A DNA stretch of 64,000 nucleotides from Candidatus Moraniibacteriota bacterium (GTDB taxonomy: Bacteria > Patescibacteriota > Minisyncoccia > Moranbacterales > GCA-2747515): NCBI GenBank assembly GCA_016699795.1, contig CP065011.1, positions 687,318 to 751,317 on the forward strand, read 5' to 3'. Every line of letters starts with the position of its first letter. Positions within the stretch are counted from its first letter, which is position 1. Positions 9,854 through 64,000 of the stretch are shown here, piece by piece. A program made the position numbers and the translations under genes. Under the pieces are notes generated by a model, which saw only the letters and a program-made list of their open reading frames with translations, made no database searches and was not told where the DNA came from.

Positions 9854-10687
9854 TTAAAAAATCTCGTGTTTATCTTTTGAAATGGTTTTTTCTTTTATTA
9901 ACTTTTTGAGTTGGGGAAGTATGTTTTTTGTTGCTTTTTCCCCGAAAAGAATTTTATCCTGACCATTAACAAATGTATACCATCGATTTTTTTCAAGATT
10001 AATTTCTATGGTGATATCAGCACTTTCTGAATTAAGAAGCGCTAAATGATGCCGAAGAATACGAAGGGAATCATTAGCTATATCGTACCAACCAGGTTTC
10101 CATTGTATATTTAAGTAATGCTTGTCTAAATTGACAGCAATAACAATATCAGCTCCCATACCCCGTACGATTCTCGCTGGTACAGGAGAAGATAATCCTC
10201 CATCAGCAAGAATTTTCCCTTCTTTTTCTGTTGGTTTGAATACAAGAGGAATGGACATACTTGCTTTAATAGCCGATGCCATAGCACCCTTATTAAGAAG
10301 AACACATTCTCCAGTTTTTAAATCAGTAGCTACGGCAGTAAAAGGAATTCGGCATTTTTCTATAGTTTTTTCTTTGAGGGTATCGTTGAGAAAACTTTCA
10401 ACTTTCCCTCCATTAAGAAGTCCATGCCGAAGATTGGGATCGAAAAGTACAGAAAGGAGCTTTCTCCAATTTGTTCCAGAAGCAAGAGATTCTATTTCAG
10501 ACACAGACAATCCTGATGCATAATATCCTCCTATCATAGAGCCAATACTAGACCCTGCTATGCAATGAATAGGAATATTATTTTCTTCTAAAATCTTAAG
10601 AACTCCAATATGGGCTAAACCTCTCGTTCCTCCACTTCCTAATGCGAGGCCGATAATAGGGGATGAGGAGGATGATTTTTCTGGCAT
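9854..10687 (-). CDS. patatin-like phospholipase
   Basis: GSGGTRG oxyanion motif and GSSIG (GxSxG) nucleophile motif, DGG near C-terminus; start set to Met 10687. Confidence 0.8.
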   Translation of the reverse strand: MPEKSSSSSPIIGLALGSGGTRGLAHIGVLKILEENNIPIHCIAGSSIGSMIGGYYASGLSVSEIESLASGTNWRKLLSVLFDPNLRHGLLNGGKVESFLNDTLKEKTIEKCRIPFTAVATDLKTGECVLLNKGAMASAIKASMSIPLVFKPTEKEGKILADGGLSSPVPARIVRGMGADIVIAVNLDKHYLNIQWKPGWYDIANDSLRILRHHLALLNSESADITIEINLEKNRWYTFVNGQDKILFGEKATKNILPQLKKLIKEKTISKDKHEIF

Positions 10688-10903
10688 ATAATTTTTTGTG
10701 AAGAAGTAGAAATATTTTTTGAAAATATATACTGGTGGACTGTTACCAATTTCCATTTTCTATTGCAATTTTCAAATTTTCACTGCAAATTCGATAAAGA
10801 TTTCATTTACGAAAAGAGATTGACAATAGTTCTATACTAACTTTTATCCAAATAGAGTCTTTTGTCAAAATTTTAAGAGTATAGAGAAAGATGAAAAATT
10901 TTT

Positions 10904-11536: not shown

Positions 11537-14005
11537 ATGGAATTTTTTTTGTGGTATTATCATGATGGATTAAAAAGCTTTTTCCGTGTTTGGAGAAATT
11601 ATCTTGAACACGGATGGGATTTTTTTTCTACGAAGGATCTCTTGAAAACACTCTTTTCTCCATGGAGAAAAGACATAACCCCCAAAACATGGAGAGGTCT
11701 TGCTCCCTTGAGATCAATGCGAAGATTTATAGAAAATATTTTTTCTCGATTTATCGGATTAATTGTTCGATTCTCAGTAATTATATTTACAATTGTTTGG
11801 GAATTTTTTATTTTCTGTATTGGTTCTATTCTACTTTTCATTTGGCTAAGCGCACCCTTTTTGCTTTTAGTTGGTCTTCCTTTGGGATTTCTCTTTGAAA
11901 CTTTTTTCTTACTTTTCTTTGTAACGTTTTTTGTTTTTCTTTTTTCTTTATTTTGTTTTTTTCAATCAAAGAAGGTGTTTTTTTCGAGAATGGATCTTGC
12001 TGACCTATACGAATTCCCAGTATTTTCACGAGTATTGGCGAGAGTGGATATAGATCGTTCTGAAATAAAAAAAGAGGATCTTCTTTCTAAGAAATCAATT
12101 ATTGCTTTTTTGGAAACGAAAAATGTTCGTTGGGAAAATTTTGTAAAAGCTCTTGATTGGGAAACTTCTTTGGCTGATGAAAAATTTCGAAAATCTTTAT
12201 TTTGGACTAAAAGTCAGCTTTTTCGTATTCAACCGATAGGAAGACAATGGAAATTTGGATACACACCTCAACTCGATGATGTGAGTGAAGATGTTATTTT
12301 TTCTTTATCTGGGGAATTTTCTTCTATGCGAGTATGCTCTCATAAGAGAAATCTTGAAGTTTTGACGCTTATTCTTTCAAGATCGGATCAAGATAATGCT
12401 CTTCTTGTAGGAAGATCTGGATCGGGACGAAAAACAATCGTGAATTGGTTTGCTAAATATATACATGAGAGGGTGCTTGAGGGATCTTTTCGAGACGTAA
12501 GAATTCTTCGCCCCAACATGGAACAAATTTTTTCTTTGGGATCTCAGATGGGATCTGTCGCGACTTATATTGAACATCTTTTTGCTCAAGCCGCATTTGC
12601 GGGCAATGTTATTCTTGTTATAGATAATCTTGAAAACTATATTGGTGAAGGTGCTATAAAAAATGGAAATCCTGACATTACTCCCACGTTAGAAAAATTT
12701 CTTCCTCTGGGAAGTTTTCGTCTTATCGCTACTGTTTCTGAAGAGGGTTTTCATTCTTACATAGAAAGAAATAGTTCCATCGTTAAACATATGGAACGTA
12801 TTGATGTGGAAGAAATTTCTGAAGAAACCGCTATAGATATTCTTTTGGACGAGTTTACTCAGCTCGAAGAGAAAGAAATTGTTTTTACGGTAAAAGCCTT
12901 TCGATACATTGTAAGTCAATCAGGAAGATTTAATTCTGGAGTTCCTCTTCCTGAACGAGCATTGGATCTTGCTAAAGAAGTCCTTATTTATAGATCGAAC
13001 CATCCCAAGGGAGGAAGAATTGATTCTCACGCTGTGAATGAATATATTACTCTTAAAACGGGAATACCTATCGGAGCTATATCAGAACAAGAGCGAGAAA
13101 AACTTACTGATTTGGAAGTCCTTATGGCTCAGCGCATAGTAGGACAAAAACATGCGGTTTCGCAGTTGGCGAAATCTCTTCGAAAAGCACGAAGTGGTGT
13201 TGAGGAGTCATTTCGTCCTATAGGATCTTTTCTTTTTCTTGGACCTACTGGAGTAGGAAAAACAGAGATGGCTAAAGTGCTCGCAACTACTTATTTTGGA
13301 GGAGATGCTCGTATGGTACGTTTGGATATGAGTGAGTTTCAATTGCCCTCTTCTTTGGGAGATCTTATTGGTTCGAGAGAAATGGAAATGACAGGAAAAT
13401 TAGCTTCTCTCGTTCGAGATAACCCTTACGGAGTTCTTCTCTTGGATGAATTAGAAAAAGCTGATCGCAGGGTTTTGGATATTTTCTTACAGATTTTGGA
13501 TGAGGGTTTTTTTACGGATGCATTTGGTTCGAAGGTTCGTTTTAATAATCTTATTATTATTGCCACATCTAATGCTGGATCTGTTTTGATAAAAGAATAT
13601 TATGAAAAAAATCCTGATGGAAATGTTGAGGAAATAGAAAAAAAGGTTTTAAGCGCAATGGTGAATGAAGGAACTTTTCGGGTAGAATTTCTCAATCGTT
13701 TTGATGATGTTATTTTCTTTTTTCCGCTTTCTCAAGAAGAGCTTTTGCAGGTTACTGAAATACTTTTAAAGGAATTTGCTCAAAATGTCTGGAAAAATAA
13801 ACATATACGAGTTTCTTTTGACACAGACATTGCTCAACTTATAGTTACTCATGGCTATGAAGCTTCGTTTGGAGCCCGATCTATTCGAAGATATATAACT
13901 GATTCGGTAGAAGCTTTTATTGTAGACGCTATAATTTCTCGGAGTATGAATGAAGGGGAAGAGCTTTTCGTTACGGCTAAAGATTTACAAATTATTTTTT
14001 CATAA
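11537..14005 (+). CDS. ClpA/ClpB-family double AAA+ ATPase with N-terminal transmembrane region
   Basis: D1 Walker A GRSGSGRKT, D2 GPTGVGKTE..DMSEF.., sensor GARSIRRY; N-terminal ~150 aa highly hydrophobic (multiple TM helices), no Clp N-domain. Confidence 0.65.
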   Translation: MEFFLWYYHDGLKSFFRVWRNYLEHGWDFFSTKDLLKTLFSPWRKDITPKTWRGLAPLRSMRRFIENIFSRFIGLIVRFSVIIFTIVWEFFIFCIGSILLFIWLSAPFLLLVGLPLGFLFETFFLLFFVTFFVFLFSLFCFFQSKKVFFSRMDLADLYEFPVFSRVLARVDIDRSEIKKEDLLSKKSIIAFLETKNVRWENFVKALDWETSLADEKFRKSLFWTKSQLFRIQPIGRQWKFGYTPQLDDVSEDVIFSLSGEFSSMRVCSHKRNLEVLTLILSRSDQDNALLVGRSGSGRKTIVNWFAKYIHERVLEGSFRDVRILRPNMEQIFSLGSQMGSVATYIEHLFAQAAFAGNVILVIDNLENYIGEGAIKNGNPDITPTLEKFLPLGSFRLIATVSEEGFHSYIERNSSIVKHMERIDVEEISEETAIDILLDEFTQLEEKEIVFTVKAFRYIVSQSGRFNSGVPLPERALDLAKEVLIYRSNHPKGGRIDSHAVNEYITLKTGIPIGAISEQEREKLTDLEVLMAQRIVGQKHAVSQLAKSLRKARSGVEESFRPIGSFLFLGPTGVGKTEMAKVLATTYFGGDARMVRLDMSEFQLPSSLGDLIGSREMEMTGKLASLVRDNPYGVLLLDELEKADRRVLDIFLQILDEGFFTDAFGSKVRFNNLIIIATSNAGSVLIKEYYEKNPDGNVEEIEKKVLSAMVNEGTFRVEFLNRFDDVIFFFPLSQEELLQVTEILLKEFAQNVWKNKHIRVSFDTDIAQLIVTHGYEASFGARSIRRYITDSVEAFIVDAIISRSMNEGEELFVTAKDLQIIFS

Positions 14006-14022
14006 GAAAAAAAATGGATATT

Positions 14023-14050
14023 TTGAAATTTTTCTAGTAAATGGTAAAAT
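14023..14050 (+). promoter_or_regulatory. sigma70-like promoter TTGAAA-16-TAAAAT upstream of fba-gap
   Basis: TTGAAA 14023-14028, TAAAAT 14045-14050. Confidence 0.4.
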
Positions 14051-14078
14051 GAAGATATAATTTTGGAATAAAAATAGT

Positions 14079-14933
14079 ATGATAGAGAATGTTGCAGATA
14101 TGCTTGTGGAAGCTCGTCGGGAAAGATATGCTGTTGGGGCTTTTAATGTTATGAATTTAGAAACAACACACGCTGTTTTGTTGGCTGCAAAGAAAATAAG
14201 AGTCCCGGTCATTCTTCAGTTTACAGAAAGTACTATGAGGTATATTGGGGGGCGTGCAATTTTTTATACAATTAAAAATCTTAGTGAATGGTATTATCCT
14301 GATGTTCGAGTGGGTATCCATTTGGATCATGGAAAAAATATAAAAGTAATTCAACGATGTTTGGAAATGGGACTTCCCTCCGTTATGTTTGACGGGTCTC
14401 GAAGAGACTATGAAGAGAATATTCGCCTTACTGCTGAAGTTGTTCGTATGGGACATAATCGAGGAGCCTCTGTTCAAGGAGAACTCGGTTCAGTTCCTTA
14501 TTCTAGTGAAATGAAAGATATTGAAATAGATTGGGATAAATATATGACAGATCCTGATCAGGCGAGAGACTTTGTGGCAAGAACGGGAGTAAATACTCTT
14601 GCCGTTGCTATTGGGAATGCTCATGGATTGGCTAGAGAACGAGTAACGCCTGATTATGATCGATTAAGTCGTATCGTTGAAAAAATAAATATTCCTATTG
14701 TTATGCACGGCGCTTCTGATTGGGAAAAAGATCGTGTTCACGAAGTCGTTTCTCGAGGAGTTTCTTGTTTTAATGTGGATACTAACTCTAGAGTAGCTTT
14801 TGCAGGGAGTCTTTCTCGGGCATTTCAAAAAGAAATAAAATTAAATACGGACTTGCGTCAAATCCTTGGAGATGCTCGAGACACCATGCAAGAAGCTGTT
14901 GAGAAAAAAATGCGAATGTTTTCTATGGAATAA
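14079..14933 (+). CDS. fba: class II fructose-bisphosphate aldolase
   Basis: N-terminal FbaA-type motif, GIHLDHG zinc site, characteristic class II FBA length. Confidence 0.85.
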   Translation: MIENVADMLVEARRERYAVGAFNVMNLETTHAVLLAAKKIRVPVILQFTESTMRYIGGRAIFYTIKNLSEWYYPDVRVGIHLDHGKNIKVIQRCLEMGLPSVMFDGSRRDYEENIRLTAEVVRMGHNRGASVQGELGSVPYSSEMKDIEIDWDKYMTDPDQARDFVARTGVNTLAVAIGNAHGLARERVTPDYDRLSRIVEKINIPIVMHGASDWEKDRVHEVVSRGVSCFNVDTNSRVAFAGSLSRAFQKEIKLNTDLRQILGDARDTMQEAVEKKMRMFSME

Positions 14934-17650: not shown

Positions 17651-19510
17651 ATGGATATTCAAAAAATTGAAGAAATTTCACGTAAAATTCGAAATTGGTG
17701 CGTAAAAATGACAACTATTGCGGGTTCAGGACACCTAACATCATCTCTTAGCGCTGTAGAAGCTATGGTGGTTTTGATGTTTTCCAAGAAGCATTTTTTT
17801 CGTTACGAACTAGAAAATCCTGAGCGTATAGATAATGACCGATTAATCTTTTCAAAAGGACATGCTTCGCCATTATTTTATTCACTTTGGGCTATGGCTG
17901 GTGGTGTGAATGTGGAAGATCTCAAAACATTCCGAACATTCGAAAGTGTTCTTGAAGGGCATCCCACAAGAAGATTTCCTTTTACGGAGGTTCCCACTGG
18001 ATCTCTTGGGCAAGGTATTGGTATTGGTGTAGGAGAAGCACTTTATGTAAAAAAATTTTTTAAGGAAAATCAGAATATTCCTCGTGTGTTTGTTCTCTTG
18101 GGGGATAGTGAATTGACTGAAGGTTCAGTTTGGGAATCAGCGATGATAGCTTCTCATTACAAACTTGATAATCTCGTGGCTATTGTGGATGTGAATCGTC
18201 TTGGTCAACGTGGAGAAACTGTAGATGGCTGGAATCTTAGTGTGATAGGAAAAAAATTTGAAGCATTTGGTTGGAATGTTGTAAATGTGGAAGATGGACA
18301 TTCTCCAGAACAAATTGAGAATGCTTACGAACTTGCAAGAGAAAAGAAAAAACCATGTGCAATACTTATGAAAACTTTGAAAGGAAAGGGAATTTCTTTT
18401 CTAGAAAATAAAAATAATTGGCATGGAAAAGCGCTTAATGATGATGAAGCAAAGCGGGCTTTGGAAGAAATTGATGATAGGAAAGAGGACTTTTTTTTGA
18501 AACTTCCGAAACCTGAAGAATATGAAAAGAGAGAGATTCTTGTTGATCTTTCAGAATATCAACAAGAAACTTTTACTAAAGGCTTACGAATGGCCCCTCG
18601 GAGAGTGTGTGGAAAGACTCTTGCTCGTATGGGGAAATATGATGAGCGGATCGTGGTTCTTGATGCAGAGGTGAGTAACTCTACTTCAAGCGAAGATTTT
18701 GGAAAGATATACCCAGAGAGATTTCTAGAAATGTTTATTGCTGAACAAAATATGGTTTCGGTCGCAACTGGCATGGCAAGACGTGGGGCGATACCTTTCA
18801 TTTTTACATTCGGAGCTTTTTTTTCTCGAGCATTCGATCAGATTCGTATGGCTGGCTATAGTGATGTCTCGATGATTTTCATTGGATCGCATGTAGGTGT
18901 TTCTATCGGTGAAGATGGTGTTTCGCAAATGGCTTTAGAGGATATGGCTATGTTTTCAACTATTGAAAATGTTCATATTTTTTCTCCTTCAGATGCTGTT
19001 TCTATGGAAAAATGTTTATATCTCGGAAAAGATTTAAAGGGGTTAACATATATTCGTTCTACGCGAGCTGAGCTCCCTGTTCTCTATCAAGAGAATGAAA
19101 TATTTTCCTTGGGCGGATCTAAAACACTTCAAGAAAGTAAGCAAGATGTTGTTACGGTTATTGTTTGTGGAATAACTGTACACGAAGCACTTCGTGCGTA
19201 TGAGATATTAAAAAAAGAGAATATCTTTATTCGTATTGTAGATGCTTATAGCATCCGGCCTTTAGATAAAGAGATGATTCTTCGAAATGGAGAAGAAACG
19301 AGTGCTATCATCACTGTAGAAGATCATAGAGGGCATGGAGGGCTTGCGGATGCTGTGAAAGAGATATTATGTGAAATTGAAGGAATGTCTGTAAGATTTC
19401 GATCCCTTGCTGTTCGTAAAAGGCCTCAAAGTGGAAAACCAGAACAACTTCTTCATTGGGAAGAAATTGACGCAGAGGCAATTGTAAAAACAGTAAAAGA
19501 TCTTTTATAG
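17651..19510 (+). CDS. tkt: transketolase (single-chain)
   Basis: GSGHLTSS..GHASP thiamine-PP binding N-domain, central pyrimidine-binding and C-terminal domains all present. Confidence 0.85.
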   Translation: MDIQKIEEISRKIRNWCVKMTTIAGSGHLTSSLSAVEAMVVLMFSKKHFFRYELENPERIDNDRLIFSKGHASPLFYSLWAMAGGVNVEDLKTFRTFESVLEGHPTRRFPFTEVPTGSLGQGIGIGVGEALYVKKFFKENQNIPRVFVLLGDSELTEGSVWESAMIASHYKLDNLVAIVDVNRLGQRGETVDGWNLSVIGKKFEAFGWNVVNVEDGHSPEQIENAYELAREKKKPCAILMKTLKGKGISFLENKNNWHGKALNDDEAKRALEEIDDRKEDFFLKLPKPEEYEKREILVDLSEYQQETFTKGLRMAPRRVCGKTLARMGKYDERIVVLDAEVSNSTSSEDFGKIYPERFLEMFIAEQNMVSVATGMARRGAIPFIFTFGAFFSRAFDQIRMAGYSDVSMIFIGSHVGVSIGEDGVSQMALEDMAMFSTIENVHIFSPSDAVSMEKCLYLGKDLKGLTYIRSTRAELPVLYQENEIFSLGGSKTLQESKQDVVTVIVCGITVHEALRAYEILKKENIFIRIVDAYSIRPLDKEMILRNGEETSAIITVEDHRGHGGLADAVKEILCEIEGMSVRFRSLAVRKRPQSGKPEQLLHWEEIDAEAIVKTVKDLL

Positions 19511-24310: not shown

Positions 24311-24694
24311 TTAAGAAACCCAGAATATCAAGAGATCCCAGAAAATACTTATAAATCCTAGAAAGGCAGCTGCCCAATATTTTTTTATTAGGACTGCAAA
24401 GCCAGAGAGTATTACAAATAGCAAGGAAAGAACAGCATAAAGCCCAATAGAAGAACTCATTATAAAACCCTCTCTTTGTATTATGAGATCCAAGAAAATA
24501 CTTATAAATCCAAGGAAGGTAGCTGTCCAATACTTCTTTATTAAAGCAGCAAAGCCGGAGAGTATTACAAACAGCAAGGAAAGAACAGCGTAAAGTCCGA
24601 TAGAAGAACTCATTGTAAAACCCTCTCTTTGTGTGAAAAAAAAACATATTCGCCAAATAAAAGCGAACGAATTAGAAAATAAATGGATTTTCAT
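24311..24694 (-). CDS. small membrane protein made of two tandem copies of a 51-aa unit (two predicted TM helices each)
   Basis: Protein repeats QREGF-MSSSIGLYAVLSLLFVILSGFA-LIKKYW-A-FLGFISIF-DL twice; encoded by a 153-bp tandem DNA duplication. Confidence 0.4.
   Translation of the reverse strand: MKIHLFSNSFAFIWRICFFFTQREGFTMSSSIGLYAVLSLLFVILSGFAALIKKYWTATFLGFISIFLDLIIQREGFIMSSSIGLYAVLSLLFVILSGFAVLIKKYWAAAFLGFISIFWDLLIFWVS
24333..24638. repeat. 153-bp tandem direct duplication (2 copies, ~85-90% identical)
   Basis: gagatccc..ataaatcc..cagctg.ccaata..attacaaa.agcaaggaaagaacagc.taaag.cc.atagaagaactcatt.taaaaccctctctttgt repeats with period 153. Confidence 0.8.
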
Positions 24695-34969: not shown

Positions 34970-37900
34970 TTGGGAAATCACAACATGGGTATGGCTATTG
35001 AAAATGAAAATGAAAAGGGTGCGGAACAATTGGAAAAACAACAAAAACAGTTTAATGATAGAATAGTTACAGTAAGAAATTCCATACGAAATAAATTGCA
35101 AGAGACGCGAAAAAAAGAGGGTTTGGAAGAAGGAAATAATTCAGTCGAAAGAGAAAATCCATGGAAGCTTCTTTTTAATGATATAAACTATCATCAAGGA
35201 ATGTCTTCTCTTACAGAAGAACTGGTAATGGATTTTGAAAAAAGATTTCAGGAGCTTTCGGATAATTCTGTTGGAATGAAAAATGAAGCAACTTCGGAAA
35301 ATACAAAAGAAAAAATAGCAAATGATTTTTCTAAAGAGATTCAAGAAATGGAAGTATTGGATGTAAAACTCCAAGAAAAACAACGTAGTTTGGATGATAT
35401 TGATGAACAAATCGAAGAACTTCTTGGTCAGGGTAAAAATATTCAGTTGGATATAGATCAATTGGAAGAAAGAATGGGGACTATTCCGGAAAAAGAATGG
35501 TTTGAGGCTTTAAGAGATGTGGAAAATATAAATCATGATATAAAAACAAAACATAGAAGAAAAAGTGAAATTGAAAAAGAAGTAAATACTTTGCATTCGC
35601 AAGTTTTGGAACGTTTTGAAAAAATTCCCGAAGAAAAAAAACAAGAACTGAAATTGAGAGAAAGTCTTTTTTCTATAAGGATTTTTGGTGAGCATAAAGA
35701 GAAGAAAGTAAATAAAAATGAAGATATGGAGAATTTTTTGAGAGAAAAAGGTGAGCAATTACCCTCCGGGGAGTCTCAAAAAAAACAGGTGAATGAAAAA
35801 AGTAATCCTCAAGAGGAGGAAATAGTTCTTTCTTCTCATGATACGCAAGAAGGAAAGAAACATGAAGAACTTCGAGAAAAGATGAGTGATGCAATGCAGG
35901 AATTGGCGAAGAAAAAAACTGAAAGAGAGAGGTTTGTGGAGGAGAAACGAGAACTTGAAGATAGGAGTAGAAAATATGGCATAGAATTGAATGAAGATTT
36001 TGATAATATTGAAAAACAAATTGAAATAATTGAAAAAGATATACAAAAGCAAGAAGAGTTTGTGCAGGTGATGCAGAAAGAATTTGAAGGGGGTTTTGTG
36101 AATAATTCTGGAGGCACCCCGAATGATTTTGAAAAAGAAACTCTCTCACAGTCTTCAGGTGAAACTGAAAAAACACAAGAGGAAGAAAAAGAAAGTAAAG
36201 AAAGTGAAATTCTTGAGGGAGAGTATATTCCCAAAAACAAAGTTTCAGGGAGTTCGGAAAGAGAAGAGCGGGTTGTTATTAACGGTGAATACTCGAGAGT
36301 GGACGATAAAGAAGAAACAAACTCTTCGCAAAAATCCGAAAAAGGCGAGCAGCGTTTTTCTCCAGAAGAATTTTCAAATCGAAAACAACGTATAGAGGAT
36401 ATTCAAAAGAAAATTGATGGCTATGAGGAAGAGAAGAATAAATTACAAAAAGAATTAAATCTTTTGGGAGGTGAGCAAAAAGAAATCGAAGCAGAATTAA
36501 GTTCCTTGGAAGGGGGGATGAAACAAGAGGAGCGAGGCGGAAAGACTGTCTATAGAGGAACGCTTTCAGTGGGAGAGATTGAAGAATTAAAAAAGAGAAG
36601 AGATGAAAATAATCGAAAAATACAAGAAAAAAAGGCGTCTATAGAGGTAATTCAAATATCCATCCAAAATGCACAAGATGAACAAAAAGCTCTAAAAGAA
36701 AAGTTTATTGCGGATTTTGATATGTACGCGGGTAGAGTTTCTCCGGGGGAAGAAGCTCAGACATTACTTGATTTTTTTGAAGATGCGGAGAGATACCGGA
36801 AAGAACTTGATGGTTCTTTAGATATTTTGCCTAAGAATGTTTCTGAAAATAAGGAGGGACCATCAGAAAAAACAGAAGAAAAACCTCTTTCTGCTACGGA
36901 CGAAAAAAAGAACTCTGAGAAGGGGGATGAAGAAGGTGAATTTTTGCGAAAACTTACGAAGGATTTGGAAGATGCTCGAGAGGCATTTGCTTTGGATATG
37001 AAAAATCCCGAGAAGAAAAAAAAGTATGATGAATATTTGCAAAACTACAATAGCGAAGTGGCGAAAAGATTTTCGGATTATATGGAAGCGAAAGAATTTG
37101 AACAGATGATGCGTGCCAACGAAATAGGTGAACAAATAAAAATAAAAGAAGCGATAGCGGACGATCGATTGAAGGATGTTTCTTTTATGGGCAAGGCAAA
37201 AAATATGTTTATGAGTGGGATAGAGAAGTATCAAAAACTTCCATTCAAACAAAAAATTGCTCTTAGTGTTGGACTTATAGGTGCCGGAGCTTTAGGAGGT
37301 GCTGCTGTGGGTGCGACAGCAATAGGCATGACTGCTGCCGGACTTGGAATGCGAGCCCTTTCTTTTACATCGTCTTCTGTGGGTTTCAATACTTTTTTTA
37401 AGGATATTTCCGAAAAACTTTATAGTGGTGCAGATAGAGAAAGGGTTGATAATGCAAGAGATTCTTTCGGTGAAATTTATGGGAAAAAAAGTGAATTCTA
37501 TAAAGAAAATCCTTTAGAAAAAGCGAAATATATTCAGAATTTGTTGGGACAATCTTCTTCTCAAATTGCGGATCGAATAGAAAAAAGAAATTATCGAGAT
37601 AAATATTTACGATGGACAGGGTCGGTAGGATCCGCTCTTGCTTTAACTATGGCGTCTCGATGTTTGGGAGAAGCTGCTGCAAGTAAAATTGGAGAATGGT
37701 TTTCAGACGCGCCTACTTTAAAAATTTCCCCTGAATATATCCAAACGCCACCATCAGATCCTATTACAGGGGGTGGAATGGCGTTGGATGATGCATCTTG
37801 GAATAATGATTCAGATTTTCCAAATGGGGGTGATGATGGAGGACAAAGCTCGTTTACACCAGAAACTTCGCAGGGAGTTTCTTCGGAAACTATTCCTGGA

Positions 37901-39799
37901 GGGGGAGTTTCTTTAGATGAATCATCATGGGAGCAAAATCTTTCGGACAAGAGTCCTGATATGGAGAAGACATTTGAAACTGTTGAAATGAAAATGTCTC
38001 CTGAAGAATATGCGAAGGCACATCCAGAACTTTTTAAATCTTTGGAAGGACGTGTTTGGATGGATAATGATACTCAATTAAGAGTTGGTACTGATGGTAT
38101 GATAACGGGTGCTGATAGGAATGAATTAAGTCTTCGTTGGGGAGGTGGCGGTGATGGCGTAGACGCTCGAGGCAATTATGTTTTTAGTGTGGCTAAAATG
38201 ACTTCTGATGGTTCTTTTCATAAAGGATTGTCTGAAGATGCAATCAAGGCTATACAAAGTGGAGAATTAAAAATGATTTTTACTTTAAATGAAAACCTTC
38301 AGGGACAATATATAGAAGTTCCTGTAGAATCTAATGGAAACATTATAATTGATCCTCAATCTTCTGCAGGAAAAATATTATTTTCTCAAAATGGAGGAAG
38401 ATCTGTTTTCCTTGGACATACAGCAGAAGTTGGTATTTTTGGAGACGACGGAAAATTCACCGTTCTCGCAACTCATAAAGGAAACGGTTTGGAATCTATT
38501 ATGGAGAGCGTGCAGAATGAAATTCCTGAGGAAGTTACTTCGAATATTACTACAGAAACAGCTCTTCCTGAGGACTTGTCTATAAAACCATCTCCTGAAA
38601 TTCCTGAAAAAATGCATTTTGAGGAGTCAAGATTTTTTGGAGAAGATATGCAACATAGGGTAAAAAGTGGTGATCGAATATGGAATATTTTAGGAGAAAG
38701 GACAGAGAACTTTTTTTCAGATCGTCCAGATATTTCCTCTGAACAAAGGAAAATATTCATAGATTCTTTGAAAGATTCCTTAGAAAATATGAAGCCTGAG
38801 GAATTAAAAGCAGGAGGAATATCGAGTGGAAATATTGATAGAATTTTTGCAGGTCGCGATACTATTGATTTTTCAAAACTTCTCGATGATGAGGATTATC
38901 TTCGCGCCATAAAACAATCAGGTATTACTTTGGAGGCGCAAGAAACTATGGCAAGTGAAATACCTTCCCAAATAGAAGTAACTCCTGAGATAACGGAAGC
39001 ACCTGCCACGTCGTCAGAAGAAGTTTTACAAGCGCAACCAGAAATGGTTACAGAAGAATTTCCTTCAGAAACAGCCACAGAGGAAGTTCTTGAAACAGCG
39101 GAAGAAACAATCCCACAAGACGTAGAAACTTCTCCAATTCCAGAAACTTTACCAAAAGAAGAAATTCCTTCAGAAACAGATATAGAGGAAATTCTTGAGA
39201 CAGTGGAAGAAACAACTCCACAAGACGTAGAAACTTCTCCAATTCCAGAAACCTTACCAACACCAGAAATTCTTTCAATTGGAGAAAGTCGTCCTTTTGG
39301 AGAGTTAATCGGGGAGGGTCCTATTACGGAGCAAGGACTTAAGTCTTTGGGTTCTGTGGGAGAGGATATTTGGAAATATGTGAGCACTTCTTTGGAAAGA
39401 AATTATCTAGATGTACAAAACTCTACAATACAAGACACATTAAAGGCATTAGAAGTACAGAGACTTTCTGATGGTAGTATCTCTCTTGTTTCAGAAGGAG
39501 AGACGTCTTTTCTGGAAGTTATGAGAGAATTTCCCAAAGATGCTCTTGCTTTTGATAGATATGAAGAATTTTTTGATTCTATTTCAGATAAGGATAGAAA
39601 TGATATTTCCCTTATAGTGGAACAGAATATAAATGATCCTTCAAAATTTGAAAAAAATCTAAGAAGCATATTCTCTTTTAATGGAGTTTCAGAGAATAAA
39701 ATTGAAGAATTATTAAGATCAAGAATTGGTGAAAGTAGAGAACAATTTTTCCAAAGAACAGTAACTCAAATAGCTATGCTTAAAAATATTAGTAAATAA
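34970..39799 (+). CDS. giant (1609 aa) hypothetical protein: N-terminal acidic coiled-coil (~750 aa), Gly/Ala-rich TM segment, Gly/Asp-rich middle, C-terminal tandem PETLP repeats
   Basis: Continuous ORF; KIALSVGLIGAGALGGAAVGATAIGMTAAGLGMRALSF hydrophobic segment; EEVLETAEETIPQDVETSPIPETLP repeated twice near C-terminus. Confidence 0.6.
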   Translation: MGNHNMGMAIENENEKGAEQLEKQQKQFNDRIVTVRNSIRNKLQETRKKEGLEEGNNSVERENPWKLLFNDINYHQGMSSLTEELVMDFEKRFQELSDNSVGMKNEATSENTKEKIANDFSKEIQEMEVLDVKLQEKQRSLDDIDEQIEELLGQGKNIQLDIDQLEERMGTIPEKEWFEALRDVENINHDIKTKHRRKSEIEKEVNTLHSQVLERFEKIPEEKKQELKLRESLFSIRIFGEHKEKKVNKNEDMENFLREKGEQLPSGESQKKQVNEKSNPQEEEIVLSSHDTQEGKKHEELREKMSDAMQELAKKKTERERFVEEKRELEDRSRKYGIELNEDFDNIEKQIEIIEKDIQKQEEFVQVMQKEFEGGFVNNSGGTPNDFEKETLSQSSGETEKTQEEEKESKESEILEGEYIPKNKVSGSSEREERVVINGEYSRVDDKEETNSSQKSEKGEQRFSPEEFSNRKQRIEDIQKKIDGYEEEKNKLQKELNLLGGEQKEIEAELSSLEGGMKQEERGGKTVYRGTLSVGEIEELKKRRDENNRKIQEKKASIEVIQISIQNAQDEQKALKEKFIADFDMYAGRVSPGEEAQTLLDFFEDAERYRKELDGSLDILPKNVSENKEGPSEKTEEKPLSATDEKKNSEKGDEEGEFLRKLTKDLEDAREAFALDMKNPEKKKKYDEYLQNYNSEVAKRFSDYMEAKEFEQMMRANEIGEQIKIKEAIADDRLKDVSFMGKAKNMFMSGIEKYQKLPFKQKIALSVGLIGAGALGGAAVGATAIGMTAAGLGMRALSFTSSSVGFNTFFKDISEKLYSGADRERVDNARDSFGEIYGKKSEFYKENPLEKAKYIQNLLGQSSSQIADRIEKRNYRDKYLRWTGSVGSALALTMASRCLGEAAASKIGEWFSDAPTLKISPEYIQTPPSDPITGGGMALDDASWNNDSDFPNGGDDGGQSSFTPETSQGVSSETIPGGGVSLDESSWEQNLSDKSPDMEKTFETVEMKMSPEEYAKAHPELFKSLEGRVWMDNDTQLRVGTDGMITGADRNELSLRWGGGGDGVDARGNYVFSVAKMTSDGSFHKGLSEDAIKAIQSGELKMIFTLNENLQGQYIEVPVESNGNIIIDPQSSAGKILFSQNGGRSVFLGHTAEVGIFGDDGKFTVLATHKGNGLESIMESVQNEIPEEVTSNITTETALPEDLSIKPSPEIPEKMHFEESRFFGEDMQHRVKSGDRIWNILGERTENFFSDRPDISSEQRKIFIDSLKDSLENMKPEELKAGGISSGNIDRIFAGRDTIDFSKLLDDEDYLRAIKQSGITLEAQETMASEIPSQIEVTPEITEAPATSSEEVLQAQPEMVTEEFPSETATEEVLETAEETIPQDVETSPIPETLPKEEIPSETDIEEILETVEETTPQDVETSPIPETLPTPEILSIGESRPFGELIGEGPITEQGLKSLGSVGEDIWKYVSTSLERNYLDVQNSTIQDTLKALEVQRLSDGSISLVSEGETSFLEVMREFPKDALAFDRYEEFFDSISDKDRNDISLIVEQNINDPSKFEKNLRSIFSFNGVSENKIEELLRSRIGESREQFFQRTVTQIAMLKNISK

Positions 39800-60594: not shown

Positions 60595-60667
60595 GCGCGC
60601 ATAGCTCAGTCGGTAGAGCAGTGGCCTTTTAAGCCAACGGTCGGGGGTTCGAATCCCTCTGCGCGCA
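60595..60667 (+). tRNA. tRNA-Lys (anticodon UUU)
   Basis: Acceptor GCGCGCA/TGCGCGC, D-arm GCTCAGTCGGTAGAGC, anticodon loop CTTTTAA, T-arm GGGGG-TTCGAAT-CCCTC; resembles E. coli tRNA-Lys. Confidence 0.9.
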
Positions 60668-60893
60668 CGAAGTAAGCGCTAAGCATGCAAACTGCTTTGC
60701 ATGCGTGAGGGATGAGAAAGACGGAACGATGTTTCGCATATGTATGTATGCGAAACCGTGAGTCGGGGTCGAGAAATATTTTCTTAAAATATATTCGTGA
60801 CCGAATCCCTCTGCGCGCACGAAGTAAGCGCTAAGCATGCAAACTGCTTTGCATGCGTGAGGGATGAGAAAGACGGAACGATGTTTCGCATGT
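60651..60893 (+). repeat. tandem direct duplication (~90 bp, period 152) containing the last 17 nt of tRNA-Lys plus downstream hairpins
   Basis: gaatccctctgcgcgcacgaagtaagcgctaagcatgcaaactgctttgcatgcgtgagggatgagaaagacggaacgatgtttcgcat occurs at 60651 and again at 60803. Confidence 0.85.
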
Positions 60894-60916: not shown

Positions 60917-60980
60917 CCTTCGTACTCAACCTTTTCCCCTGCGAAGGCGGGGAATTATTTGATTCTTTTTCCTTTCCCGT

Positions 60981-61048
60981 CCTTTCGATCGACAAGTCTT
61001 CGAGGAGTGGAGACTTAGTCCGCCTTTGGCGGAAAACTTTCCGGATTT
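60981..61048 (+). repeat. structured repeat family B, copy 1
   Basis: cgacaagtcttcgaggagtggagacttagtccgcctttggcggaaaac ~85% identical to 62560-62630; contains hairpins AAGTCT..AGACTT and TCCGCC-TTTG-GCGGA. Confidence 0.7.
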
Positions 61049-61067
61049 CCTTTTCGTTGTTCGGATT

Positions 61068-61107
61068 CCTCCCCCTTAGAAAAAGGGGGATTGAGGGGGA
61101 TTTTTTT
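61068..61107 (+). terminator. G/C hairpin plus T-run (CCCCCTT-AGAAA-AAGGGGG ..GGGGGATTTTTTT)
   Basis: Inverted repeat followed by 7-T run. Confidence 0.35.
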
Positions 61108-61124
61108 CCGTCTTTGTGAGCATA

Positions 61125-61182
61125 GCGAAGTAATCCAGAAATTCAGATGGACCGCCACGTCGCGGACTCCTCGCGGAGACGG
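61125..61182 (+). repeat. structured repeat family A, copy 1 (core AATCCAGAAATTC.GATGGACCGCCACG-var-CTCGCGGAGACGG)
   Basis: Shares >85% core identity with copies at 61219, 61385, 62761, 62864. Confidence 0.75.
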
Positions 61183-61218
61183 AAAAAGAGTCATTGCGAG
61201 GAGGAGTCTTCGAGTGAA

Positions 61219-61274
61219 GTGGCAATCCAGAAATTCGGATGGACCGCCACGTCGAGGACTCCTCGCGGAATCGG
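61219..61274 (+). repeat. repeat family A, copy 2
   Basis: ggcAATCCAGAAATTCGGATGGACCGCCACGtcgaggactCCTCGCGGAATCGG. Confidence 0.75.
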
Positions 61275-61285
61275 AGATCCAGCAT

Positions 61286-61314
61286 TTCACAAAAAACACA
61301 AAATATTCTATACT
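61286..61314 (+). promoter_or_regulatory. strong sigma70-like promoter TTCACA-17-TATACT (copy 1 of duplicated promoter)
   Basis: Near-consensus -35/-10 with 17-nt spacer; identical architecture duplicated 171 bp downstream. Confidence 0.5.
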
Positions 61315-61384
61315 AAAAAAAGAAAAGAGAGATTTCCATCAAAGGCGAGATGAAACAATCCATTGATCCGTCTTTGCGAGTGTA

Positions 61385-61444
61385 GCGAAGCAATCCAGGA
61401 ATTTCGGATGGACCGCCACGGCTGAGTACAGCCTCGCGGAATCG
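61385..61444 (+). repeat. repeat family A, copy 3 (variable segment forms GGCTG-AGTA-CAGCC hairpin)
   Basis: gcgaagcAATCCAGGAATTTCGGATGGACCGCCACGgctgagtacagcCTCGCGGAATCG. Confidence 0.75.
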
Positions 61445-61456
61445 AAGATCCAGTAT

Positions 61457-61485
61457 TTCACAAAAAACACAAAACATCCTATACT
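61457..61485 (+). promoter_or_regulatory. strong sigma70-like promoter TTCACA-17-TATACT (copy 2), ~60 nt upstream of DUF1566 gene
   Basis: TTCACA 61457-61462, TATACT 61480-61485. Confidence 0.55.
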
Positions 61486-61548
61486 AAAAAAAGAAAAAAG
61501 ATTATTTCACAAACAAAAAAAAGAACATTTATTATACAATAAAATAGT

Positions 61549-62520
61549 ATGATGTTTACGAAAAAAAATACTCCCCCCAAACTACAAAGAACTCTTGATG
61601 GAATACGAAAAGAAAAAAACAATACTTATTCTATAAAAGAAAAAAAAGAAATCTCTCTTTCTTCTTTTTTTTCTTTCCTCTCCAAAAAAAGAAAACTCAC
61701 TTCTACTTTCCTCTTAACCATTCTTATCTTAGGAGGAGTCTCTTTTTTCTTTTCAAAAAATATAAAAGGAGCAACGTATGGATGGATTCAAAGTAGTTGG
61801 ATAGGAGGAGTAACAGTAAATACTGCTACACATACCAATAATCAAGAAAACTGGACGGAGTATGCTTCCAAAGATTCTAATATTCAAGCAGATGCAAGTG
61901 GTGTAACGATTACGGGGACGAATAATAGTTGGGTAGAGACGAGTGATGCGGACTTTAACGATGGATCATTTGCCCAAACCTATACAACGGGAAATGCTAT
62001 TTATACCCAAAAACCTTTTGGTGCTACTTGCACTACGAATGCACAATGCTCTAATGGAGGGGATGAGGGAACTACTGGGGGACTCTGCTCAGGAGGAATA
62101 TGTACCGATCCCTGGCAGACAGGACCATGTGCTGGTATCTATGTTCATGCCTACAATGCATCGGGAACGTATATGTGGAAAACAACACAAACTAACTGTG
62201 ATACTCCTCAGTGCGGACTCAATGGAGGACAAAATGATGATAATCTCGTCGCCGATAATTCCGTAGATTTCTCACTGTACCCTGCGCGAAATGCATGTAA
62301 GAATATGGGAGAAGGAGGAAGGCTTCCTACTCTTTTAGAGTTTCAGTGTATTTATACCAACCGAGCTGTTTATGATGACTATGGTGGACTTTCGACTTAT
62401 CATTGGTTAAACACAGAAAATTCTACTACGTACGCACACTATTTTGACAGTACTGTTGCTCGTGGAGGAGTTTATCATAAGACGAACAGCTATTCCGTCA
62501 GGTGTGTTCGTGGACAATGA
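61549..62520 (+). CDS. secreted DUF1566 / Lcl C-terminal (Fibrobacter major paralogous, C-type-lectin-fold) domain protein with Cys/Gly-rich middle
   Basis: N-terminal TM/signal anchor; C-terminus GGRLPTLLEF..YHWLNTE..YSVRCVRGQ matches DUF1566 hallmarks (RLPT..EL and terminal VRCVR). Confidence 0.65.
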   Translation: MMFTKKNTPPKLQRTLDGIRKEKNNTYSIKEKKEISLSSFFSFLSKKRKLTSTFLLTILILGGVSFFFSKNIKGATYGWIQSSWIGGVTVNTATHTNNQENWTEYASKDSNIQADASGVTITGTNNSWVETSDADFNDGSFAQTYTTGNAIYTQKPFGATCTTNAQCSNGGDEGTTGGLCSGGICTDPWQTGPCAGIYVHAYNASGTYMWKTTQTNCDTPQCGLNGGQNDDNLVADNSVDFSLYPARNACKNMGEGGRLPTLLEFQCIYTNRAVYDDYGGLSTYHWLNTENSTTYAHYFDSTVARGGVYHKTNSYSVRCVRGQ

Positions 62521-62559
62521 TCCCCTCTCTTTTTTTCGACCGACAAACTTTCTTCCCTT

Positions 62560-62630
62560 CGTCTTTTCGACCGACGAGTCTTCGAGGAGTGGAGATTTGG
62601 TCCGCCTTTAGCGAAAAACTCTCAGGATTT
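62560..62630 (+). repeat. structured repeat family B, copy 2
   Basis: cgaccgacgagtcttcgaggagtggagatttggtccgcctttagcgaaaaac; partial third copy ttcgaccgacaaac at 62536. Confidence 0.7.
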
Positions 62631-62760
62631 TTTTCTTTTTCCCCGTGAAGACGGGGATCCAGTATTAAAGGAGTACAGAAGAGAAATTTCTCCACTCGTT
62701 CGCGCTGCTCACTCGGTCGAAAAGACGGAAATCCGAGTCATTGCGATCCCGCCGTGGCGG

Positions 62761-62828
62761 GAGAAGCAATCCAGGAATTCGGATGGACCGCCACGCTTTC
62801 TCGAAGACTCGAAATCTCGCGGAGACGG
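62761..62828 (+). repeat. repeat family A, copy 4
   Basis: gagaagcAATCCAGGAATTCGGATGGACCGCCACGctttctcgaagactcgaaatCTCGCGGAGACGG. Confidence 0.75.
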
Positions 62829-62863
62829 AAAATGCGTCATTGCGAGGAGCGAGTCCGCGAAGT

Positions 62864-62919
62864 GACGAAGCAATCCAGAGTTAATTTCTGGACCGCTTCG
62901 CAGAGCCTCGCGGAGACGG
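62864..62919 (+). repeat. repeat family A, copy 5 (diverged core)
   Basis: gacgaagcAATCCAGagttaatttcTGGACCGCttcgcagagcCTCGCGGAGACGG. Confidence 0.6.
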
Positions 62920-62989
62920 AGTTGAAGATATGTAAAGATGACAAAAAACTTTGGAAATATTCTTTTTTCTATGGTATGCTGTATCTTGT

Positions 62990-64000
62990 ATGAATAGAGT
63001 AAAACAAAAGAAACAGAGAACCTTCTTTTGGATGTATGCGATCGTTTTTTCTTTCGCTTGTTTTGGTATGTTCTCGGGTGAAGTGAGGGCGTATACTATC
63101 AAAACATCGTACACTTCTTCCGTACAAGAATACCCCGCCTCCACGCGATTTGGCACACTCACCTGGACCGATACCTTTACAGGAAATAATCCTGCAACAT
63201 TGGGTTCCAATACCACTATAGAAGTTCGTGGAGGTAACATCCTCGTACCTGATGGATCATGGACTGCGTGGGTAAATATTTCCAAAGGAGGAAGTCTTTC
63301 TCCTATCGATTGGAATCGTTGGGTACAGTATCGAATAAACTTTGACTATGAAGATCCCAATGCCGTCCCCGGAGTTTCCGACGTAACGATTTCTACGTAT
63401 TCGGGAATGCTTACGTCTTCTATTTATGATACAAAAAATTTTACCACGAGAGTGAAATCGCTTTCTTGGGATGAGGTACTTCCCGGTGGAGGCGCAAATG
63501 CTATTTTTCAGATTCGTACTTCACCCAACAATGTGACATGGAGTCCATGGTGCGGACCAGATAATGGCACGTCAGGAACATGTAATAGTTCCGCATGGTT
63601 TGGAGATTCTTCGGGTGCGGAGAATGTAGAAACATTGTTTAGTGGAGTGGATGTATCGGGAATTCAACGAAATCGATATATTCAGTGTCGTTTGGCTCTT
63701 TTTTCCGATGGAGCGAATATCCCGAGCGTTTCTCGTATCTTGGTAGATTATGAAAATGATGAGATGCTTCCTCCTTCTTGGTTAGGAACAGAGAAACTCT
63801 ATAGGGGATCTGTCAAAGACACCGGAGGACCTTCTCGTTTTTCCTCTCTTTCTTTTACGGCGATTCCTTCAGGAAATGCTACGATAAAAATGTTTCTTCG
63901 AGCAGGAAACGTACCAACTCCTGATAATTCATGGAGTGAATTTGTAGAAGTCTCTAATGGAGGATCAGCAGATTCTATCTCGGGCAATCGCTATGTTCAA
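62990..64000 (+). CDS. secreted hypothetical protein, 3'-partial (runs off window end); not in ORF track because no stop within window
   Basis: ATG at 62990, open frame for 337 codons to position 64000; MNRVKQKKQRTFFWMYAIVFSFACFGMFSGEVRA signal peptide; Thr/Ser/Asn/Trp-rich. Confidence 0.6.
   Translation, partial: MNRVKQKKQRTFFWMYAIVFSFACFGMFSGEVRAYTIKTSYTSSVQEYPASTRFGTLTWTDTFTGNNPATLGSNTTIEVRGGNILVPDGSWTAWVNISKGGSLSPIDWNRWVQYRINFDYEDPNAVPGVSDVTISTYSGMLTSSIYDTKNFTTRVKSLSWDEVLPGGGANAIFQIRTSPNNVTWSPWCGPDNGTSGTCNSSAWFGDSSGAENVETLFSGVDVSGIQRNRYIQCRLALFSDGANIPSVSRILVDYENDEMLPPSWLGTEKLYRGSVKDTGGPSRFSSLSFTAIPSGNATIKMFLRAGNVPTPDNSWSEFVEVSNGGSADSISGNRYVQ

Follow-up and report, generated by a model that had tools for sequence, protein, structure and literature searches.

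A likely fossil variable region of a diversity-generating retroelement in a lectin-fold surface protein gene of Candidatus Moraniibacteriota

The C-terminal segment of a surface protein of Candidatus Moraniibacteriota, a tiny bacterium of the Patescibacteria (CPR), is most likely a fossil variable region (VR), the orphaned target of a diversity-generating retroelement (DGR), because the DGR cassette is absent from the locus; we favour this reading with modest confidence. The gene lies near the end of the stretch of DNA analysed here (64 000 nt, hereafter the window) and is an orthologue of the DGR variable proteins of the CLec2 or 'category d' class. Mutagenic retrohoming from a downstream template repeat (TR), through an adjacent bAvd and reverse transcriptase (RT), rewrites the last ~45 codons in its relatives. 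The VR sequence now found in the window would then reflect past diversification, since frozen and overlaid by ordinary substitutions, and its product would today act as a binding protein of fixed specificity. We thus see in the window protein nothing out of the ordinary: it belongs to a known system and is probably inactive.

The open reading frame (ORF; positions 61549–62520, + strand) is present as the initial annotation had given it. Its 323-aa translation, which carries the C-terminus quoted there, is identical to NCBI protein QQS60943.1 (IPN70_03575), a hypothetical protein from a Candidatus Moraniibacteriota MAG, on a contig of 1 186 598 bp. The N-terminal 50 aa are rich in Lys and Arg (14 K+R versus 4 D+E) and lead into a single hydrophobic transmembrane or signal-anchor helix (aa 50–68, positions 61696–61752, +; Kyte–Doolittle maximum 2.05; helix 51–71 in the AlphaFold2 model), beyond which the ectodomain holds ten cysteines. 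The protein had been described as secreted, but these three features together fit a signal-anchored surface protein better than a freely secreted one. The Cys-rich, confidently modelled part of the ectodomain (aa 181–323, positions 62089–62517, +) ends in a C-type-lectin-like Lcl_C/DUF1566 fold, and we therefore picture an N-in, signal-anchored protein whose disulfide-rich ectodomain would present this fold as a ligand-binding head. The first 220 nt of the gene (61549–61768, +) are dense in homopolymers, with six runs of at least seven A/T or at least six C, that is, ~27 per kb compared with 3 per kb in the window. The syntenic orthologue at the locus that we call L001 requires two frameshifts in the exactly equivalent homopolymer stretch (L001:9500–10000), a pattern that could represent slipped-strand phase variation or homopolymer sequencing errors.

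The neighbouring genes are of the housekeeping kind and encode LepA, a PpiC rotamase, an HtrA-type protease and a small membrane protein, and are followed by a tRNA-Lys(UUU) gene (60595–60668, +) just upstream of the target gene. The description of this place as a repeat-laden, promoter-duplicated island beside a tRNA was borne out by 90-nt, 71-nt and 70-nt duplicates. A 152-nt unit that starts with the last 19 nt of the tRNA is tandemly repeated, such that 60650–60739 and 60802–60891 are 100% identical over 90 nt. The 71-nt repeat brackets the gene, with its upstream copy at 60978–61048 (+) and a second, 87% identical copy just downstream at 62560–62630. The promoter-like segments (61261–61535, +) comprise 70-nt duplicates (61261–61330 and 61432–61501), each with TTCACA-17-TATACT (61286–61314 and 61457–61485), and a third site at 61506–61535; the stretch 61281–61325 is conserved upstream of the L001 orthologue. 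We considered the tRNA-Lys gene as the attachment site of an island and rejected it: the copy of its 3' end lies just 152 nt downstream and no further copy occurs past the gene, which argues for a local tandem duplication rather than an att pair around the gene.

Several compositional features of the window are recorded here as separate observations. GC-rich dispersed repeats occur in this AT-rich genome at 60978–61470 and 62560–62925, with CAATCCAGGAATTCGGATGGACCGCCACG and GTCATTGCGAGGAG among their cores; the window has them in the island only, and they are partly common to L001 (L001:13643–13989, 10675–10725 and 19266–19303). An Rfam search of the window returned two tRNAs only, the GC-rich repeats being without a match. 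The GC content of 62001–64000, which covers the target gene, the repeats and a large surface protein gene, is 0.43–0.46, compared with 0.30–0.39 in the rest of the window. Elsewhere, tandem duplications lie within ORFs at 24326–24631 (two copies of 153 nt, 88% identity) and 39052–39261 (two copies of 105 nt, 90%), and a 1609-aa ORF (34970–39799) shows unusually strong GC and AT skew.

To place the protein in a family we compared it with homologues from a protein collection (numbered P) and with the loci that encode them (numbered L), the pairs being P0002 = L002, P0003 = L001, P0005 = L138, P0009 = L139/L140 and P0014 = L141. On the window protein itself, Pfam PF07603 (Lcl_C) scores 17.3 bits (E 0.006) and does not reach the gathering threshold of 34.9 bits, whereas the homologues P0002, P0003, P0005, P0009 and P0014 score 38.9–50 bits. 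A 65-sequence family profile matches the solved C-terminal domain of Legionella Lcl (8q4e) with an E-value of 1.2e-13. From residue 181 onwards, most 10-residue blocks of the AlphaFold2 model have a mean pLDDT > 90. The model's top match in the PDB is again 8q4e (Foldseek E 5.8e-5, probability 1.00), and dozens of C-type lectin-like snaclecs (snake-venom C-type lectins) rank next. The DUF1566/C-type-lectin fold proposed at first, weak when judged by Pfam alone, is thus secured by the homologue scores, the family profile and the fold search, and we assign the window protein to DUF1566 by homology and fold. Its low Pfam score is attributable to changes at two scaffold residues, a Phe and a Gly. 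What did not hold was the supposed richness of the last 40 codons in codons of the diversifiable kind: these make up 16 of the 40, compared with 62 of 211 elsewhere in the gene (p = 0.20), and AAY codons show no enrichment (3/40 versus 20/211).

The closest non-paralogous relatives in the protein collection are P0002, with 57% identity over its full length, and P0003, with 69% over 63% of the query; that collection holds no near-identical strain variant of the window protein. P0002, the best full-length homologue of this kind, is followed in L002 by bAvd and then by an RVT_1 reverse transcriptase. Its VR spans 143 nt (L002:4463–4605) and has a TR copy 420 nt downstream, from which it differs at 14 positions; 12 of these are TR adenines and the other two lie at the edges. 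The same order of target, TR, bAvd and RT recurs in L138, L139/L140 and L141, and in these relatives the TR lies 280–500 bp downstream of the VR; L126 also carries bAvd and RT downstream of the target, with a TR that is not cleanly resolved. Over the last 105 nt, the VR/TR pairs of L002, L138, L139 and L141 show 0–1 non-adenine positions among 11–20 mismatches. The TRs of L002, L138 and L139 encode nearly one peptide, TENSTTNAYNVNFNNGNTNNNNKTNSNYVRCVRGK, and that of L141 encodes a shorter variant with a VRCVK end. Direct VR/TR, bAvd and RT evidence from homologues thus upholds the earlier suggestion that this family uses its DUF1566 heads as DGR variable proteins with the VR at the extreme C-terminus, and the VR coordinates first proposed for the window gene, 62380–62517, agree with the VR of the best homologue. 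The CLec2 or 'category d' class (DUF1566, DUF823, Fib_succ_major) accounts for 14% of surveyed DGRs (Wu et al., 2018; PMC5758913).

The cassettes of the relatives also have neighbours of a particular kind. RhuM or Bro-N genes lie directly 3' of the RT in three of them (L138:3259–3936; L139:13009–13317; L141:12014–12403 and 13857–14696), and L141 has a GIY-YIG nuclease ORF between bAvd and RT. RhuM and Bro-N genes are typical of prophages, and these neighbours together hint that the DGR cassette may be mobile.

No such cassette accompanies the window gene. We scanned both strands of the 64-kb window for a TR with an adenine-tolerant method, which scores only mismatches at non-adenine template positions and recovers the TRs of L002, L138, L139 and L141; the best candidates had at least eight non-adenine mismatches per 60 nt, and all were A-rich tracts. 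Relaxed BLASTN and self-comparison of the window returned only short chance or low-complexity matches as TR candidates, and tblastn searches of the 64 kb for the RT and Avd of L002 gave no match with an E-value better than ~1. The initial annotation had likewise reported neither TR nor RT in the window, and Avd can now be added.

The place where the relatives carry TR, bAvd and RT is occupied in the window by an intergenic spacer (62521–62989) with GC-rich dispersed repeats only. Next comes a gene for a large secreted or surface protein, which runs off the window after its 5' part (62990–64000, +) and has homologues at both of the related loci: 75% aa identity to a 1376-aa fn3/Pur_ac_phosph_N protein that follows P0003 in L001, and 32% identity (E 6e-41) to the ORF next after the RT in L002. 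The repeats at 62561–62921 are collinear with L001:13753–13989, just upstream of the large gene of L001, and this collinearity together with the synteny indicates that the spacer is the large gene's own upstream region rather than a decayed cassette. The locus thus reads target–[TR-Avd-RT]–large surface protein in L002, with a similar arrangement in L141, and target–large surface protein in L001 and the window. Together they form a three-way series: the cassette is present in L002; it is absent in L001, where the VR still matches a TR; and it is absent in the window, where the VR is no longer TR-like.

Within the gene, the VR-equivalent (62380–62517, +) is homologous to the VR of the DGR-linked orthologues and carries two changes at scaffold positions, Phe to Ser301 and Gly to Ala304. 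Compared with L001, few parts of the gene diverge as strongly as the blocks of this segment: their identities are 0.47 and 0.33 in aa (gene mean 0.70) and 0.56 and 0.47 in nt (gene mean 0.71). One other block, codons 31–45, is as low. The IMH-like 3' end, GTCAGGTGTGTTCGTGGACAATGA (62497–62520, +), is conserved: identity to L001 is 88% over the final 42 nt of the gene and, over the final nine codons, 100% in aa and 89% in nt, and GTCAGGTGTGTTCG(T/C)GG(A/G)CAATGA is common to the window, L001 and L002. A divergent VR followed by a conserved IMH-like end is the footprint of a hypervariable segment. That the end is conserved and the ORF intact counts against a fossil, and the same footprint would be left by an active remote target, in which a DGR at another, unlinked place in the 1.19-Mb genome would rewrite 62380–62495 in trans from a diverged, AAT-rich TR with adenines at the Phe and Gly codons. 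We regard this as somewhat unlikely.

Compared with the L002 TR, the window VR has mismatches at 19 of 42 adenine sites and 24 of 63 non-adenine sites (OR 1.3, p = 0.54). Against the TRs of L138 and L139 it has 27 and 29 non-adenine mismatches (OR 1.2–1.3), so that there is no adenine bias against any of these three family TRs (p 0.54–0.70). The L001 VR, set against the same L002 TR, has mismatches at 17 of 42 adenine sites and at none of 63 non-adenine sites, and for the L138 VR the figures are 22/42 and 9/63 (OR 6.6); across species, comparisons of other VRs with each other's TRs gave ORs of 2.0–6.6, significant in six of eight. At similar gene divergence the skeleton of the window VR differs at 24 of 60 positions and that of L138 at 9 of 60 (Fisher p = 0.004, with approximate denominators). 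The non-adenine mismatches of the window VR (24–29, depending on the TR) fall mostly at third codon positions (18–21, with 6–8 at first or second positions), which speaks for the remote target and against the fossil, as the genome is AT-rich and a separate, AAT-rich TR for the window gene could explain most of the mismatches. The encoded scaffold points the other way. The TR-encoded peptides are nearly invariant in the family. Seven scaffold codons are free of adenine in all three of the L002, L138 and L139 TRs; four other VRs keep all seven, and the window keeps five, the two that it breaks being those at Ser301 and Ala304. In content, the window VR does not look like a product templated by a TR of the family type.

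The sequence beyond the gene also sets the window apart from its relatives. A GAGATTTTGGAATTTTT motif occurs 8–15 nt past the stop codon of the DGR-type targets in L001, L002, L138 and L139 (L002:4605–4680, L138:855–935, L139:10870–10915, L001:10640–10665), and in L002, L138 and L139 it is followed by a GC-rich hairpin whose 4-nt loop reads GTGA, GTGG or GATA; the two may form a target-recognition element or a terminator. Downstream of the window gene both motif and hairpin are absent and homology stops at the stop codon, an absence that weighs against a remote target. Post-VR structure in the window does not exceed that of shuffled controls (z = 0.03 and +1.4), and since a strong post-VR hairpin is significant in L138 only (z = −4.8), this comparison is supportive at best. 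Taken together, the view of the window copy as a candidate DGR target stands as far as family membership goes, and falls short in the cis cassette, the adenine bias, the intact scaffold and the downstream motif.

For a DGR elsewhere in the genome, the indirect signs are negative. RTs and targets diverge in step in this family (L002 and L138 have targets that are ~64% identical and RTs that are 70% identical; in more distant pairs the RTs are 55–58% identical), from which a cognate RT is expected to be ~65–70% identical to that of L002. Of the best 120 RT matches, a single one, on a 1.7-kb ENA contig, has an identity in this range. No protein of the source contig is among these 120 matches (down to 51% identity) or among 13 Avd matches, and other proteins of the source genome are present in the database that was searched; the searches cover close relatives of the cognate RT and Avd, and a divergent or pseudogenized DGR would escape them. 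A search of the literature for the genome or the locus tag in conjunction with DGRs found nothing.

In favour of a remote DGR, there are documented precedents (Wu et al., 2018; PMC5758913), and there is the syntenic L001, whose pattern also counts against the fossil reading. Within about 10 kb of the L001 target there is neither RT nor TR, and yet its VR (L001:10526–10630) fits the L002 TR perfectly, as an adenine-only derivative of a TR of that type. The P0003 VR in L001 thus looks, by its sequence, like a remote DGR target, and a cassette-less locus with an adenine-only VR implies that remote targeting occurs at this locus type. As side observations, L001 and L002 come from different samples, and their nt identity is 93–96% in the first 30 codons compared and ~50% in mid-gene.

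The third reading, under which the gene was never a DGR target, would make it an ordinary, fast-evolving DUF1566 head in a paralogous surface-protein family, similar to DGR targets only by shared fold ancestry. Many DUF1566 homologues fit such a picture: distant ones on the long contigs L124, L125, L127, L131 and L137 lack both RT and TR within 10 kb, and the 'VR' is kept in some orthologue pairs, similar in L124/L125 and identical in L136/L137. The window VR, with its lack of adenine bias, fits as well. Nevertheless, the closest non-paralogous relatives (P0002, P0003 and P0005) all have DGR-type VRs, the locus is syntenic with the cassette-bearing L002, and the divergence falls exactly in the VR while the IMH-like end is conserved, such that we consider this reading distinctly improbable. 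More generally, the presence of a DUF1566 domain in Patescibacteria is not proof of diversification, a point that is useful for annotation.

The window protein also has paralogues in its own genome, and is one of four proteins with a common anchor and different lectin-type heads: itself, QQS61037.1 (IPN70_04085), QQS61275.1 (IPN70_05320) and QQS61678.1 (IPN70_01980). The first ~105 aa (window 61549–61865, comprising the anchor and a GATYGWIQSSWIGG module) are identical in all four, and the heads differ: three are of the Fib_succ_major type and one is DUF1566. The paralogues P0004 and P0187 match each other completely over the C-terminal 240 aa, the VR-equivalent included, and are therefore not being diversified, a point in favour of the fossil reading. 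They differ from each other only at aa 89–145, where P0187 partly resembles the window protein, a mosaicism that suggests gene conversion. A further possibility, which we judge unlikely, takes one of two forms: either an atypical, unlinked DGR still acts on the gene as a remote target, with a TR that also mutagenizes the normally protected Phe and Gly positions, or the four paralogues, with their same anchors, swapped heads and mosaic middles, may diversify by gene conversion now that the DGR is lost.

On our preferred reading of a fossil VR, the series formed by L002, L001 and the window is an example of the way in which a DGR target may be orphaned and drift thereafter, and it reveals no new mechanism. 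The system that the window gene resembles most is that of the CLec2 or 'category d' variable proteins, such as LdtA of Legionella pneumophila, which likewise carry a C-terminal DUF1566 head on a surface-anchored protein. As in that class, the VR of the window family lies in the last ~45 codons and ends in ...VRCVRGQ, and close orthologues have TR, bAvd and RT immediately downstream. The window copy differs from it in having no TR, bAvd or RT in 64 kb and a VR that is off the family TR skeleton, and in its anchor, which is a signal anchor, whereas the LdtA-type proteins have a lipoprotein anchor. In fold, the best match to the window protein, by profile as well as by structure, is the C-terminal domain of L. 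pneumophila Lcl (8q4e, PF07603), although the two share only 18% identity and the window protein alone does not reach the gathering threshold of Pfam. Lcl, a collagen-like adhesin, is not known to be a DGR target. The remaining comparison is with remote DGR targets, for example the seven non-adjacent targets of the Treponema DGR, which the window gene resembles as a target-type gene without an adjacent cassette, and its syntenic orthologue in L001 behaves exactly like a remote target. Such targets differ from a TR of the same genome at adenines only, and the 64 kb of the window contain no such TR for the gene.
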